Shown here piece after piece: positions 15,656-21,855 of a DNA stretch of 64,000 nt. The notes below the pieces were generated by a model. The model ran no database searches. It was not told the origin of the DNA and saw nothing but the letters and a program-made list of their open reading frames with translations. The translations under genes and the position numbers were made by a program. Source of the DNA: Planctomycetota bacterium (lineage in GTDB: Bacteria; Planctomycetota; UBA11346); assembly GCA_028280785.1 (NCBI GenBank), contig JANQLF010000116.1:87377-151376 (forward strand). Reading direction: 5' to 3'. The first letter of the stretch is position 1. Each line of letters opens with the position of its first letter.

Positions 15656-16672
15656 TCAAGGTTGGTAGGCGGGAAGTAATTGCCGGTCGAGGGTGAGTGC
15701 TAATACCGCGAGGGCAGTACGATAGACTTTACCATATTTACCTTCGTTGTCGCCGGGAGGAGTGTGCCACCATCCTTCTTTGTCTTGATGTGGTAATAAG
15801 GCATTATGCACATGCTTTTTATAGGTGTCTAAATAGTCAGGGAATGATCGGCCAAGTCCGGCGACGTCATAGTAAGCACGGTAAAAAAACCATGGGCCTT
15901 TCCATTCGATGGGATCGTTGCGAATGGCCGTAGCAATTGTTTTACTTAAATCGGTATCGGCTTCATTCTTTCGAATGGTGAGACACAATAATCCTACACC
16001 GCGAAGTGATGTGCGGGCAGCATTAACATCATTGTAGCCAACAGTGCCTTTTTTGGGATTACATAATTGGCGCGTATAGGTGATGCCTTTATTGATTGCT
16101 GACTCGGGCACTTCAAAGCCGGCGTGCTGAGCACCATGTAAACTAAGTAATTGCCATCCAGACAGTGACATGTCTGATTGATCACTGGTAGGATTATAAT
16201 GCCAACCACCACGAAATTTTTTGGCTTTCTTTACGTTTCCTGCTTGGACCGTAACTTCGATGGCGCGTGTTAACGCACTGCGAATTCGTGCTTCCATGTT
16301 TGGATCACCGGTCATGCCAATGCTTTCAGCAAGCATCAACGTACAGATACCATGGCCGTACATATTACTTTTATCACGTGCTCCAAAATAACCGGTACCA
16401 TCCTGCATTTGTAAAACAAAAGACAGTGATTTTTTTAACCAGGGGCCAACCTTGGTGTCGTGATAGGTTATTCCACTCGAAAGGTGCGCGTTAATACACA
16501 GTGCAGTCATGGCACAGCGATAATCACCATCCTGAATACTGCCATCTTCACGTTGTTGTGATTGCAACCATTTTAAAGCCTTATTTACCGCTTGATGACT
16601 TTTGTCCTGTTGCGGTAACTCAACGGCAAAAAGTAAACTTGAAAGTAAGGCGAGCAGACAAATGCGTATCAT
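15656..16672 (-). CDS. secreted prenyltransferase/squalene-oxidase-repeat (alpha-alpha toroid) protein
   Basis: It has a signal peptide and repeats of the type ALKWLQSQQREDGS, FVLQMQDGTGYF and DMSLSGWQLLSL. Its start is coupled by ATGA to the giant upstream gene. Confidence 0.7.
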   Translation of the reverse strand: MIRICLLALLSSLLFAVELPQQDKSHQAVNKALKWLQSQQREDGSIQDGDYRCAMTALCINAHLSSGITYHDTKVGPWLKKSLSFVLQMQDGTGYFGARDKSNMYGHGICTLMLAESIGMTGDPNMEARIRSALTRAIEVTVQAGNVKKAKKFRGGWHYNPTSDQSDMSLSGWQLLSLHGAQHAGFEVPESAINKGITYTRQLCNPKKGTVGYNDVNAARTSLRGVGLLCLTIRKNEADTDLSKTIATAIRNDPIEWKGPWFFYRAYYDVAGLGRSFPDYLDTYKKHVHNALLPHQDKEGWWHTPPGDNEGKYGKVYRTALAVLALTLDRQLLPAYQP

Positions 16673-19600: not shown

Positions 19601-21855
19601 TCATCACTGAGCGCTTCGAAAATCCATTGACCATCAATTGGCAGATAAATTTCACCAATCCATTTTAAGGAGAAATTTTCGTTACCGACATTTGCTATGT
19701 GATCATTATTTACAGAAAGACTGCGGTAATCGATCAATAACGGTTTGCCTTTAAGTTGTTTATTATTGTAGGTGTAACAGCGAAGAGCGTTTTTGTAGAG
19801 TGGTTCGCTCCACAGGCGTGAACCGCGAATAGCGTCAGCTTGAGATTGAATAAAGATATGGTTGAGTTTATGTTTTTCTTCTAAAACATCGACAGCTAAA
19901 CGTGCTTCAAGTGCAAATGCGATTTCATTTAATTGGCTGATGTTGAACAAGAGCAGTTCGCTATCGGTAATGCTATTATCTAAAAGAGTACTAATTTCTA
20001 CTTTTGGTGTTTGTAAAATTTTAGAGCCACGATTGTTGAATAATCTACAATGATGATGTAATATGTAATCAGCGTAACTACTGATCCAATCAAATCCGCT
20101 TTTATAGTCTTTGGCCACATGTGGTTTAATGCGTTTTAATAAAGCGCCCAGTTCGCGAATGTCTTTCTGTATACCATTCATTTGCTGATCGGCTTGTAAT
20201 AAGTCGCCTGATTGCGCTTGTATATCATCGACGCGCATATTACTGCGAATATCAACCCAGCGTTGCGTTAGTAATGATGCTTTATGGAGGGTGTCCATGA
20301 TGCGGTTGACAAAGGATTGCATCTGGTGGCCATGATCTGCTAATCGCGCAACGTGATGTTGACCAATTATCCACTCAACCCGCTCGCTGGTAATAGATTG
20401 ACCAGCGTTATCAACGCAGCGAGCTTCAATCCATAAACGATCACCTATTTGGTGCTGCCATTGACGAAGCTTAATCAAGATTTTTTTATTGATAGATTTT
20501 TGACCAGAATCTATTTCTATATTTTGTGAGTCGAGTATTTCATTTTGATTGCCAAATGTAAGCGCTAATGATCCAATGGCGAAATCATCTTCAGCTTGAA
20601 TCTGTGCAAAAATGTTATCTGTCGGTGAACTGATGGCATATTGGGATAAAGGGATGTGTGTATGTAATTGAGGCGGCGCATCATTTAAAACACGCAGAAA
20701 CCATTGTTGTGGATGCTGGTGGTGTAAGCCTTTTTGATTCCATAAATGCAAACTGTAATGTTGTGTTTGTTCGGCTAGCCATTCACCGCTTACGATGTAG
20801 GAGTTGCCGTCACTTTCGACACGAAGCGGTAAATTCCACTCGTTATCGCCCTTTAAGGCAGCATGGTGAAGATCAAAGTGTTGTATACGCGCAGAAAACT
20901 GAATACGAGACCCTTTCAGAATATCTGCGTCACCGGTAGATATATGTCGAACTTGTTCTTTGATATAATCAGGTGGAGTCAATTGCAGGCTAATATCATT
21001 AATTTGGGCAGCGGCACCGATAGAAATATGATAACGCGGACTTTCAGCTTCCTCTGTGAGCAGTACATAGCTAAAGCTTTCTAAAGCGGGACCGAGATCT
21101 AATTCCCATTCTTGAAGTCGTTCGTTTTTAAGCGTGCAGGGTAATTGTTCTTGGTGTCCATCATCCCAGCGAATGAGACATTCTAAATGTGAAACTGCTG
21201 GTTTTGTGTTAATATTTAAAACGACGTCTGTGCCACTTGAAATTTGAATATTACCAGGTTCAACGATAAATCGTACGGCTGTTGGTCGTGGAATATTTAA
21301 CCAAGGAAGTGTGTTGCGTAATATATAAGTGCGCGATGAAAATGGGACTAGACAGATCAACCAGATTGCAGTGAGTGCAATTAATTGTTTTCGTTTCTTC
21401 TGCAATGGTCTTTGGTGGAGATCGTTGATATCATCTGCATCTTTAATAGTTTGCGTTGCTATAGCGACACAGCGTTGCATCATCCATTCACTGACACCAA
21501 TCTGTTTATTAATGCAGAAATCAACAGCAGAGGAAATATTATTATGTGCTCGTTGGGGAAAGTGTTGTTCATATTCATGCGCAATGTCAACCAAATTTGG
21601 CTTGGTATATAGCGGCAATAATAATTCTTTGATGAAAATATAGGCAACGAGAGCCCAAAAGATGCCGGCACCAATAAAACGCAATGTGTCAGCCCAATGC
21701 AACCAGGCATCTGCAAGTGATAAAAATAGAACATAAAGGAGGCCGGCAGCACAAAGGAAAACGGCATTGTCTAAAATGTGCTTTAGCCATTGCTGATTGC
21801 GGAAACGGTCCAGCGTCTCTTTGATGATGTCGGGGAGTTGGTTATTGGTACTCAT
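16669..21855 (-). CDS. giant membrane-anchored protein (about 1728 aa) with N-terminal TM helices, Ig-like/beta region, PA14-like module and long Q/H/N-rich helical C-terminus; possibly DUF4175-like
   Basis: The track start is at 21885. ATG 21855 (MSTNNQLPDII...) forms an ATGA overlap with the upstream stop and is preferred. TM helices include AVFLCAAGLLYVLFLSL, IGAGIFWALVAYIFI and LIALTAIWLICLV. The PA14-like core is FSLKWIGEIYLPIDGQWIFEALSDDGIQISIDEQ...GWHKINIQYFQG. Confidence 0.8.
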   Translation of the reverse strand: MSTNNQLPDIIKETLDRFRNQQWLKHILDNAVFLCAAGLLYVLFLSLADAWLHWADTLRFIGAGIFWALVAYIFIKELLLPLYTKPNLVDIAHEYEQHFPQRAHNNISSAVDFCINKQIGVSEWMMQRCVAIATQTIKDADDINDLHQRPLQKKRKQLIALTAIWLICLVPFSSRTYILRNTLPWLNIPRPTAVRFIVEPGNIQISSGTDVVLNINTKPAVSHLECLIRWDDGHQEQLPCTLKNERLQEWELDLGPALESFSYVLLTEEAESPRYHISIGAAAQINDISLQLTPPDYIKEQVRHISTGDADILKGSRIQFSARIQHFDLHHAALKGDNEWNLPLRVESDGNSYIVSGEWLAEQTQHYSLHLWNQKGLHHQHPQQWFLRVLNDAPPQLHTHIPLSQYAISSPTDNIFAQIQAEDDFAIGSLALTFGNQNEILDSQNIEIDSGQKSINKKILIKLRQWQHQIGDRLWIEARCVDNAGQSITSERVEWIIGQHHVARLADHGHQMQSFVNRIMDTLHKASLLTQRWVDIRSNMRVDDIQAQSGDLLQADQQMNGIQKDIRELGALLKRIKPHVAKDYKSGFDWISSYADYILHHHCRLFNNRGSKILQTPKVEISTLLDNSITDSELLLFNISQLNEIAFALEARLAVDVLEEKHKLNHIFIQSQADAIRGSRLWSEPLYKNALRCYTYNNKQLKGKPLLIDYRSLSVNNDHIANVGNENFSLKWIGEIYLPIDGQWIFEALSDDGIQISIDEQSIISEKAWTEQAETNYSSSLSLKQGWHKINIQYFQGLGDSKLSIKAGLKGAKLEPIIKYKMRSPIQNQKSYDIIYNMLNIYPQKDAKWDDCRTAIQDIIDTSLTIHQWAINLSDSNLHRHGQAFNKTCKPYNDYLDTSPLHGALDQALTWKPIRLSHHFHDARHIIKTHLQNWQLPIERNIVFDDLVLHIYLMEQMSKSLKDWGLPYEHIAKTHRFLQRLKEQAVSLYHVSNNNQSQLVSEIDRSYGERYLAWKIAHQLSQHVLDKINGLEIDNHNVIWQLPALRDMLIKIHGQSKTWHIHQPTSLFATLRINDLWLKQKRDYFSSYYAHFKYYFHTMLIHNGSSKNKIDVNILKKWDQFNKQNASSPITTLEQFNQKHASNKEIHGRLLNPVWQIALLHAEYAFTNNRKNEGLSSLSLALELQKHFEEENVELSKLKRYVKNAHNILRGQKSTLERFYSALMVHEDKYIQQAQQLHEGQSISNKNYSMLLNQLNNIPAPPDLTPHWKTWNRWQQELHNAIQQHTTSLQDVLRSHNKNVQDNNKLLDALMLRLKETQTGSKQQLRWQSLGKDLKKIQDEIFAAYAKAEKPFLLVKVLFKVEAQIAIHCQEQADYTRGRLSTHGTEDKFSIETLNKLISLRNAIHTTNEQLIDSIKQHVQTHETVLDRSMNYVWSRYQSEPNKAAYSFWTAINTKLNDARRIRNNFMKRSVELQIIPKSKSIRTWNNAVKEANKHMQPYWIQSAGRQQTLTTLHEADKIAALHMLTKIDLIHLDTLSLIHHYHHFMDVNTHTWDSTAQIISVLIADLTVRQLAFDDSVLVLQNIPQANEDHIGKAVKFWQNIPMLQSADELRNAIQAYQADNNTPNLALPDPLQKQADQLVNLTFAHASRLLQQQGIHVADALDSETVTDLHQSDTTQNDYQKRYEQQWQHGRALIEMRSQYEFYDAYNHDQQQLIFDYFNKIGTSEP

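Follow-up and report, generated by a model that had tools for sequence, protein, structure and literature searches.

What kind of protein is encoded by a giant reading frame that lies among genes for a MoxR-type ATPase and von Willebrand factor type A (VWA) proteins and in which almost no domain is recognised? The question is raised by a minus-strand gene in a 64,000-nucleotide stretch of a planctomycete genome (assembly GCA_028280785.1, contig JANQLF010000116.1, positions 87,377 to 151,376), referred to here as the window. An initial annotation, made from the letters alone, had described the product of this gene, at 16669-21855, as a membrane protein of about 1728 residues and had likened it to proteins of the DUF4175 or TIGR02302 type. 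Our analyses identify the protein as an enlarged and strongly diverged representative of DUF4175, an uncharacterised family, and not as a new kind of system. The best explanation, which we consider probable, is that it is the large membrane protein of a conserved MoxR/BatA operon and acts there as a stalk or tether.

The gene itself is well defined. The minus-strand open reading frame (ORF) is uninterrupted from 16669 to 21885 and counts 1738 codons from its first ATG. The ATG at 21855, which yields 1728 residues, overlaps the stop codon of the upstream 1046-residue ORF as ATGA, and in P0003, the closest relative of full length, translation begins at the corresponding methionine with an identical 4-nucleotide overlap, both of which back the start given in the initial annotation. 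The stop codon likewise forms an ATGA-type overlap with the start of the downstream 338-residue gene. GC content around the ORF is ~40%, and an open frame of 1728 codons is very improbable by chance. Relatives colinear with the target come from three independent assemblies: P0003 (1718 residues, 37% identity, on a contig of Logan SRR29340338 where the operon and the genes downstream of it are the same), P0020 (1704 residues, full-length) and a protein from a genome of the same genus (G001, locus L041; at least 1602 residues, 41% identity over residues 124-1728, ending at the contig edge). In a four-way alignment, hundreds of positions are invariant from end to end, with very few indels. Word-indexed searches with the whole protein and with residues 500-830 returned this close group only, and a locus search from conserved stretches of an alignment (A3) returned only the same-genus contig.

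An artefact, either a fusion of two genes or a decaying, nonfunctional tail of low complexity, would find some support in a dip of the GC content to ~37% over the DNA coding for the C-terminal part (the tail) and in the absence of a recognisable domain there. Such an origin has a negligible probability in our view: the colinear proteins of 1704-1728 residues (at least 1602 in the one that meets a contig end) exclude an assembly fusion because they stem from independent assemblies, about 150 tail positions are invariant with hardly any indels, the C-terminus is conserved again with a motif of the family, and the frame contains no internal stops. The ORF is a genuine gene and not an assembly artefact.

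The kinship with DUF4175 is carried by a direct comparison of profiles, made without intermediate sequences. An alignment of the target with three close relatives (A9) matched an alignment of nine profile-retrieved proteins (A10; PF13779 is annotated on four, a fifth bears the name 'DUF4175 family protein' and the other four lack annotation) over 463 columns at 99.9% probability (hhalign, E=8.1e-34), and at this level of profile similarity residues 9-483 are shown to be homologous to DUF4175 proteins. With a profile of six orthologues (A2), the search reached PF13779-annotated proteins (E=6e-45 to 1e-6) and others named 'DUF4175 family protein' by NCBI. The architecture of the family is found in full, with a hairpin of two transmembrane (TM) helices, a third TM helix, an Ig-like region, a long helical region and a terminal I-x-x-Y-F motif. 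Of the likeness drawn initially, the DUF4175 part therefore stands, by the profile comparison, by orthologues that pass the Pfam model and by the operon slot shared with P0006, a PF13779-annotated protein; the TIGR02302 part does not.

Several negative results weigh against this assignment. The whole target gave no match to PF13779 at E<=0.1 and falls below the gathering cut-off of 27.3 bits, residues 150-560 gave none at E<=10, and a six-frame search of the target's own genome with PF13779 left the target gene unmatched. At E<=0.1 Pfam returned PA14 alone for the target, BatD (PF13584) not being among the matches, and NCBIfam at the same threshold returned nothing, TIGR02302 included, for the target or for six phylum-level relatives. 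In equivalent ORFs elsewhere, PF13779 scores above its cut-off (54.9 bits in genome G030, 50.5 in G018, 45.6 in G007, 33.2 in G037 and 27.4 in G004), and the same-genus orthologue reaches 23.2 bits in a genome search and 21.9 bits in an hmmscan of the segment. When only the Ig segments were scanned, the orthologues at loci L024 (genome G030, 4543-5292) and L017 (G018, 6500-7900) scored 57 and 51 bits, and hmmscan of the same two proteins at full length returned no PF13779 match. Whole-protein negatives for this family are thus unreliable, and the failure of full-length scans may help to explain the family's apparent absence on a first scan. The literature searched mentions DUF4175 only incidentally, where it annotates the N-terminus of AdvA from Acinetobacter.

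How is the protein built? The initial reading of its N-terminal half, with three hydrophobic helices separated by a cytoplasmic-looking segment, a beta-rich Ig-like region and a subsequent helical stretch, agrees with the predictions at each step. A Kyte-Doolittle scan finds hydrophobic segments at residues 27-52, 57-83 and 156-179 only, and none beyond residue 180. AlphaFold2 (AF2), run on residues 1-700 with an alignment of 17 sequences, gives a model with a mean predicted local distance difference test score (pLDDT) of 84.5, in which the TM hairpin, a helical module (residues 88-143), the third TM helix, three beta-sandwiches and four long helices up to residue 678 follow one another. In the module between TM2 and TM3, the columns of A92, E96, A110, V111, G120, W124, M125 and R128 are conserved. 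Since an Arg-rich stretch lies ahead of TM1 in homologues and the basic stretch QKKRKQ precedes TM3 of the target, the N-terminus and the module of residues 84-155 are predicted to be cytoplasmic and the residues past 180 periplasmic. From this positive-inside pattern, and from experiments in which BB0173, a protein of the BatA type, was shown to expose its VWA domain to the periplasm (PMC5700661), we infer that the N-terminus is cytoplasmic, that the ~72-residue module is the sole part of the target facing the cytoplasm, and that ~1550 residues would reside in the periplasm, where the secreted toroid protein and the large domains of the two VWA membrane proteins would be their neighbours. The module would also be the largest cytoplasmic element among the membrane proteins of the operon.

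The three Ig-like sandwiches that form the core shared with DUF4175 proteins contain invariant residues (P295, Y297, D392, P395, D423, D424 and D482). Foldseek comparison of the N-terminal model with the PDB returned generic tandem Ig, MG and BIg folds only, at query-normalised TM-scores of 0.1-0.2, among them LILRB3, KIT, NCAM, macroglobulin and complement MG domains, and the Ca-rigidified stalks of SiiE and of a 1.5-MDa ice-binding adhesin. The last two matches, together with a match of the PA14 domain to an RTX adhesin chain, would fit a cell-surface adhesin whose Ig-like repeats and PA14 reach out to external glycans in the manner of giant RTX-type adhesins. We regard this as very unlikely. 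The target lacks a cleavable signal peptide, an RTX or type-I secretion signal and an outer-membrane anchor; its three N-terminal TM helices are typical of an inner-membrane protein; it has three Ig domains and not a long array, with no repeats elsewhere; and it is translationally coupled within a vertically conserved MoxR/BatA operon.

A helical bundle, modelled with a pLDDT of 79-96 in most 10-residue blocks and alignable across PA14-bearing orthologues, joins the Ig domains to the PA14 domain. The PA14-like module that had been placed at about 19400-19790 is a Pfam match within that range, with 44.3 bits against a gathering cut-off of 24, and PA14 is likewise detected in P0003, P0020 and the proteins of loci L016 and L017. 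Its closest PDB matches are 6qdi (a PA14 protein, E=1.1e-8), 6qe7 (a module of the anti-sigma-I factor RsgI3, E=4.6e-7) and the RTX adhesin chain. Residues D751, D752 and G753 are invariant in the PA14 domains of orthologues, a D-D-G segment that would fit the Ca-dependent site at which PA14 lectins bind sugar. A recent duplication of PA14 between the target and the upstream protein was considered and rejected, as the target shows no pairwise similarity to the upstream PA14-like stretch.

One may ask whether the protein is a glycan sensor and not a structural stalk. In such a scheme the periplasmic PA14 would detect a polysaccharide and the signal would be relayed by the three TM helices to the cytoplasmic module, and from there to MoxR and DUF58 or to a sigma/anti-sigma pair, as in PA14-bearing RsgI proteins. 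The RsgI3 module among the top PDB matches and the conservation of the module between TM2 and TM3 point in this direction, as do genes for an extracytoplasmic function (ECF) sigma factor and an anti-sigma-like protein (29052-30976), which are divergent to moxR and, at 57-61% and 27% identity, stay syntenic with the operon in other genera of the order. We nevertheless consider a sensor unlikely. Neither Pfam nor NCBIfam detected an anti-sigma or signalling domain in the target, the locus has an anti-sigma-like protein of its own (422 residues), and the tail of 900 helical residues would have no obvious role. In addition, DUF4175 relatives in other families and phyla keep the operon and the architecture without PA14, which makes the domain accessory to the core function. 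The synteny of the ECF sigma and anti-sigma genes suggests that the operon may be under envelope-stress control.

The last ~900 residues present a different picture. They had been described as helical and without a known motif, and indeed have no sequence match in Pfam, NCBIfam or the PDB, including Pfam scans of 300-400-residue segments and a PDB profile search. A profile of the tail, searched with HMMER at E<=0.001 against 1.84 billion representative proteins, found five proteins, the window's own product included, all of the close group; to the initial question of whether this region is conserved or lineage-specific, the answer is that it is lineage-restricted. AF2 on an alignment of three sequences predicts ~31 helices of 10-43 residues at low confidence (pLDDT 50; predicted template modelling score, pTM, 0.29), and with this low-confidence model Foldseek returned nothing below E=0.36, the nearest, non-significant matches being the rods of talin and alpha-catenin. 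No internal or tandem repeats were found in the tail, which consists of unique, Trp-rich, non-low-complexity sequence; many of its invariant positions are Trp. Within the close group, identity is 44-57% in the Ig domains and 47-50% in PA14, drops to 31-35% over residues 826-1300 and to 20-26% over residues 1301-1680, and rises again to 52-62% in the last 48 residues, while gaps are nearly absent from all regions and the total length stays at 1704-1728 residues.

In sister genera this place is taken by helical sequence that is rich in Ala and Arg, variable in length and unrelated to the tail, after which the same terminal motif returns, and hhalign of the tail with the post-PA14 regions of these genera matched only the last 23 residues, at 0.4% probability. 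The DNA coding for the tail has a GC content of 0.37-0.38 (18000-19500) as against 0.42-0.46 in neighbouring genes. In the sister genera, Ala/Arg-rich sequence at the tail position goes with a genomic GC content of ~70%, and the composition of the tail thus appears to track genomic GC. The terminal motif consists of a Trp and, ~30 residues on, I-x-x-Y-F at the extreme C-terminus, and it recurs in orthologues of the family and in DUF4175-annotated proteins of several phyla. A comparison of the last 22 residues by hhalign gave 61% (E=8e-5), a match that is suggestive when taken alone. The picture that emerges from these comparisons is of a conserved base and a conserved tip, between which a spacer would be free in sequence from genus to genus and would keep its length and helical character within the close group.

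Could the tail be more than a spacer? At residues 1369-1372, all five close-group sequences that reach the position contain C-x-E-Q (CQEQ, CLEQ or CFEQ, with x as Q, L or F), which is absent from all other homologues examined. Thioester sites of alpha-2-macroglobulin-type proteins show the same four-residue pattern. It is conceivable that MG-like sandwiches, a helical thioester domain with C-x-E-Q and a neighbouring TED-like toroid together make up an alpha-2-macroglobulin-like periplasmic protease trap, and the invariance of the motif while x varies, the MG domains of alpha-2-macroglobulin, C3 and C5 among the Foldseek matches of the Ig region, and a faint TED_complement match of the downstream toroid (E=0.037) are in keeping with this idea. 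The probability of such a trap is nonetheless slight, even slighter than that of an adhesin. The tail matches no alpha-2-macroglobulin, TED or thioester family in the segment and profile searches, Foldseek with the low-confidence tail model gave nothing at E<0.3 and no TED, and the Ig-region matches are those of generic tandem Ig folds. Moreover, C-x-E-Q falls midway along a long predicted helix, other DUF4175 proteins lack it and some lack any cysteine, and a four-residue motif found post hoc has a chance of ~1-2% per protein of such composition.

The periplasm of planctomycetes is unusually wide. A bolder variant would see the post-PA14 region as a fast-evolving, length-constrained periplasmic ruler that lets an inner-membrane Bat/MoxR complex reach over this space to the wall or outer membrane and carries, in addition, a genus-specific reactive C-x-E-Q that captures a partner or protease covalently; we hold it to be rather improbable.

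The genomic context places the target among membrane-associated partners. Six genes, from moxR (29024) to the 338-residue gene (15656), are tightly packed without gaps, with a terminator-like hairpin 3' of the last; promoter-like and terminator-like sites show no enrichment in the region. The order MoxR, DUF58, BatA-type protein of 704 residues, 1046-residue protein, target and toroid is kept across the order (one family), as judged by tblastn of the operon proteins against the loci retrieved. Identity to the window along this operon falls from 73-79% (MoxR) and 55-58% (DUF58) through 42-49% (toroid), ~30% (BatA-type protein) and 27-28% (1046-residue protein) to 20-25% in the N-terminal part of the target, with none detected in its tail, which makes the target the fastest-evolving member. 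The same six genes are found around P0006 in an unrelated metagenome (locus L046). A DUF4175 member of Bacteroidota lies outside any MoxR operon, and the slot is therefore not universal for the family. An anti-phage or conflict system of the MoxR-VWA type was rejected, in view of vertical inheritance across the order, an identity gradient like that of a core locus, and the absence of a PADLOC defence-system match for any of the six proteins.

Among the partners, the BatA-type protein has a strongly basic loop between TM1 and TM2 and an acidic stretch ahead of its last TM helix, which suggests that its large domain lies outside the cytoplasmic membrane. Hydropathy shows no hydrophobic segment in MoxR and a single marginal peak (1.55) in DUF58, inside the VWA-like fold, that we do not read as a TM helix. 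The VWA identity of the 1046-residue protein rests on its equivalents, namely weak VWA_2 and GATase1_like matches at L046 and VWA with DUF7408 in a paralogue in its own genome. The 338-residue protein begins with a signal-like helix, and its matches to SQHop_cyclase_C, Prenyltrans and TED_complement are all below the cut-offs; at L046 the homologue is annotated with toroid families, and a paralogue at L044 scores 27.4 bits for Prenyltrans against a cut-off of 26.5. The coordinates are collected in Table 1.

Table 1. Positions in the window of the target gene, its parts and the other genes of the operon
Feature	Position	Strand	Evidence
MoxR-type AAA+ ATPase, first operon gene	28002-29024	-	Pfam AAA_3 E=4.8e-63, AAA_lid_2
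DUF58 (VWA-like) protein	27103-27996	-	Pfam DUF58 E=2.5e-45
BatA-type membrane protein, 704 residues: N-terminal double-TM, VWA, C-terminal TM	24989-27103	-	BatA E=5.5e-15, VWA_2 E=2.7e-7, TIGR02226
Upstream partner, 1046-residue membrane protein	21852-24992	-	weak PA14 E=0.0023 and DUF7408 E=0.0014, both below cut-offs
Whole target gene, 1728-residue divergent DUF4175-family membrane protein, stop codon included	16669-21855	-	ORF list, ATGA overlaps, colinear P0003, P0020 and L041
TM hairpin, TM1 (27-52) and TM2 (57-83), short outside loop	21607-21777	-	Kyte-Doolittle peaks 2.13 and 1.86; AF2 helices 9-52, 56-83
Small helical module between TM2 and TM3 (84-155), predicted cytoplasmic	21391-21606	-	AF2 helices 88-143; conserved columns
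TM3 (156-179)	21319-21390	-	Kyte-Doolittle peak 1.67; AF2 helix 148-169
Three Ig-like beta-sandwiches (~195-280, 284-390, 396-497), DUF4175 core	20341-21300	-	AF2 pLDDT ~90, Foldseek, hhalign
Helical bundle joining Ig domains to PA14 (506-690)	19786-20340	-	AF2 helices 500-539, 546-579, 582-606, 618-678
PA14 domain (696-809)	19429-19770	-	Pfam PF07691 E=2e-11
Lineage-restricted region, predicted all-alpha (826-1680, ~855 residues), no known domain	16816-19380	-	profile search, AF2
C-x-E-Q motif (CQEQ) within helical region	17740-17751	-	sequence comparison
Conserved C-terminal 48 residues, motif W ... F/Y-x-x-E/D-x-x-x-x-I-x-x-Y-F-x-x-I/L	16672-16815	-	identity rise, motif in family
Downstream partner, secreted 338-residue toroid-like protein	15656-16672	-	weak resemblance to prenyltransferase / squalene-cyclase alpha/alpha toroids

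The toroid gene is a regular companion of the target's family. It follows a DUF4175-type gene in 11 of the 14 loci with a visible downstream gene, other families of the phylum included, and does so at L046 (13196-14281) as well; in the target's own genome a second DUF4175-like gene (1199 residues) is again followed by a second toroid gene (L044 87-4675, G000:C122). The literature searched yielded no account of this pairing. A third, short DUF4175 protein of the genome (545 residues, 37 bits) passes the Pfam cut-off and comes after a VWA/DUF7408 protein. It belongs to a stretch (L043 9388-14767, G000:C302) that encodes a 451-residue protein, a 798-residue VWA/DUF7408/ThuA-like protein and the 545-residue DUF4175 protein, at which point the contig ends. 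At L046, where the DUF4175 protein is PA14-less, a gene for an NPCBM glycan-binding protein (14287-15477) stands directly after the toroid gene, and a glycan-binding module may thus be supplied either in cis, as PA14, or in trans. On the plus strand of the window, a convergent gene (14720-15514) encodes a 264-residue secreted protein without recognised function, which is found beside the operon in the two closest relatives too (46-57% identity).

How far do the features of the target extend beyond it? In 41 genomes of the phylum searched with the target, ORFs from other genera of the family (~1400-2700 residues) match only residues 1-550 and the PA14 segment, at 22-28% identity, and ORFs from other families (~1000-1900 residues) match only residues 10-500. 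Within the order, whose single family comprises 18 genera and 48 species genomes, a match is found in 47 of the 48 genomes, a single ORF spanning N-terminal module, helical linker and PA14 occurs in ~10 of the 18 genera, and each genome has one to three shorter DUF4175-like paralogues. No PA14 turned up in the ORFs matched within the phylum's other families or in the annotated DUF4175 proteins retrieved. As far as these matches tell, PA14 and large size are traits of the order and not peculiar to this gene; the initial description of a protein twice the usual size with a PA14 insert does not set the target apart, since both are the norm for the orthologous group in ~10 of the 18 genera. The genome survey also showed that FtsZ (TIGR00065) scores above its cut-off in none of the 41 phylum genomes, two single-contig genomes included, and in 13 of 14 controls, which is consistent with an FtsZ-less planctomycete lineage and, taken with genome sizes of 2.3-9.3 Mb, fits Planctomycetota. 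A scan for DUF1559 gave no match in any genome, the controls included.

What might such a protein do? In the model that we propose, three inner-membrane proteins and the secreted toroid would form a periplasmic assembly in which the target serves as the stalk or tether of an envelope complex. Its Ig-like base would sit on the inner membrane and dock to the VWA partners, and its helical bundles would form an extended rod in which length may be more important than sequence, as the close group holds its length at 1704-1728 residues while identity drops to 20-26%. PA14, which would be an accessory gained in this order, could bind a periplasmic or cell-wall glycan, and the last 48 residues may contact a partner, for which the toroid protein is a candidate. 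In the cytoplasm, MoxR and DUF58 would work on the complex by way of its small cytoplasmic elements, the 72-residue module of the target being the largest.

The model has its weak points. No solved structure or demonstrated biochemical function was found for any DUF4175 protein or Bat-type complex, and the literature search returned no functional study of a MoxR/DUF58/BatA/DUF4175 operon in planctomycetes; the stalk role, the partner contacts and the glycan ligand of PA14 are therefore hypothetical. The topology is predicted, and the extended rod is hypothetical given the poor tail model and its lack of a significant Foldseek match. The many conserved Trp and other aromatic positions could equally fit compact helical domains, and total lengths between genera, from ~1400 to 2700 residues, fit a loose constraint as well as a tuned ruler. 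As for Bat systems, bat mutants of Leptospira reportedly show no oxidative-stress defect.

Among bacterial gene clusters without a known function, MoxR/DUF58/BatA operons belong to the most widespread, and DUF4175 is their largest and least understood part. An apparent orphan, for which neither a full-length match to a characterised family nor a sign of assembly fusion came to light, is now tied to this family, with a confident model of its N-terminal 700 residues. The parts that are conserved (TM helices with the cytoplasmic module, Ig core and terminal motif) are set apart from a free-running spacer, and a prenyltransferase-like toroid protein is recognised as a regular partner of the DUF4175-type gene.

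Several known systems invite comparison. The serial helices predicted for the tail resemble those of the talin rod and alpha-catenin by analogy only, at E>=0.36 and with a low-confidence model. The PA14 modules of RsgI3 (6qe7), 6qdi and the RTX adhesin match residues 696-809, the D-D-G segment included; the domain of the target differs in being inserted between helical regions of what appears to be an inner-membrane-anchored periplasmic protein and is not part of a secreted glycosidase, an adhesin or an anti-sigma factor. Bat (Bacteroides aerotolerance) and other MoxR-VWA operons (BatA-E; BB0170-BB0176 of Borrelia) likewise co-encode a MoxR AAA+ ATPase, a DUF58 protein and BatA-type double-TM VWA proteins, and the periplasmic VWA domain of BB0173 (PMC5700661) matches the location predicted for the BatA-type protein here. 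Unlike in those operons, the target has no match to BatD and no BatC- or BatE-type gene is evident; their places are taken by the VWA/GATase1-like protein, the DUF4175-type giant and the toroid protein.

The closest counterparts are the DUF4175 proteins themselves, such as the PF13779-annotated P0006 from a JGI metagenome. They share with the target the TM hairpin, small cytoplasmic module and third TM helix, ~300 residues of Ig-like domains with invariant P-P-x-Y, D-x-x-P and D-D, and a long helical region that ends in the I-x-x-Y-F motif. The target differs from them in failing the Pfam model, in its length of 1728 residues as against 900-1400 in the annotated members retrieved, in a post-PA14 region that matches five proteins only, and in PA14 itself, which DUF4175 relatives outside its order lack in the data searched. 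The gene for P0006, like that for the target, belongs to a MoxR/DUF58 operon, in which it follows those for two VWA membrane proteins and precedes that for a prenyltransferase-like toroid. The target is one lineage's version of a catalogued, unstudied family, distinguished by PA14, by enlargement and by an orphan helical spacer.

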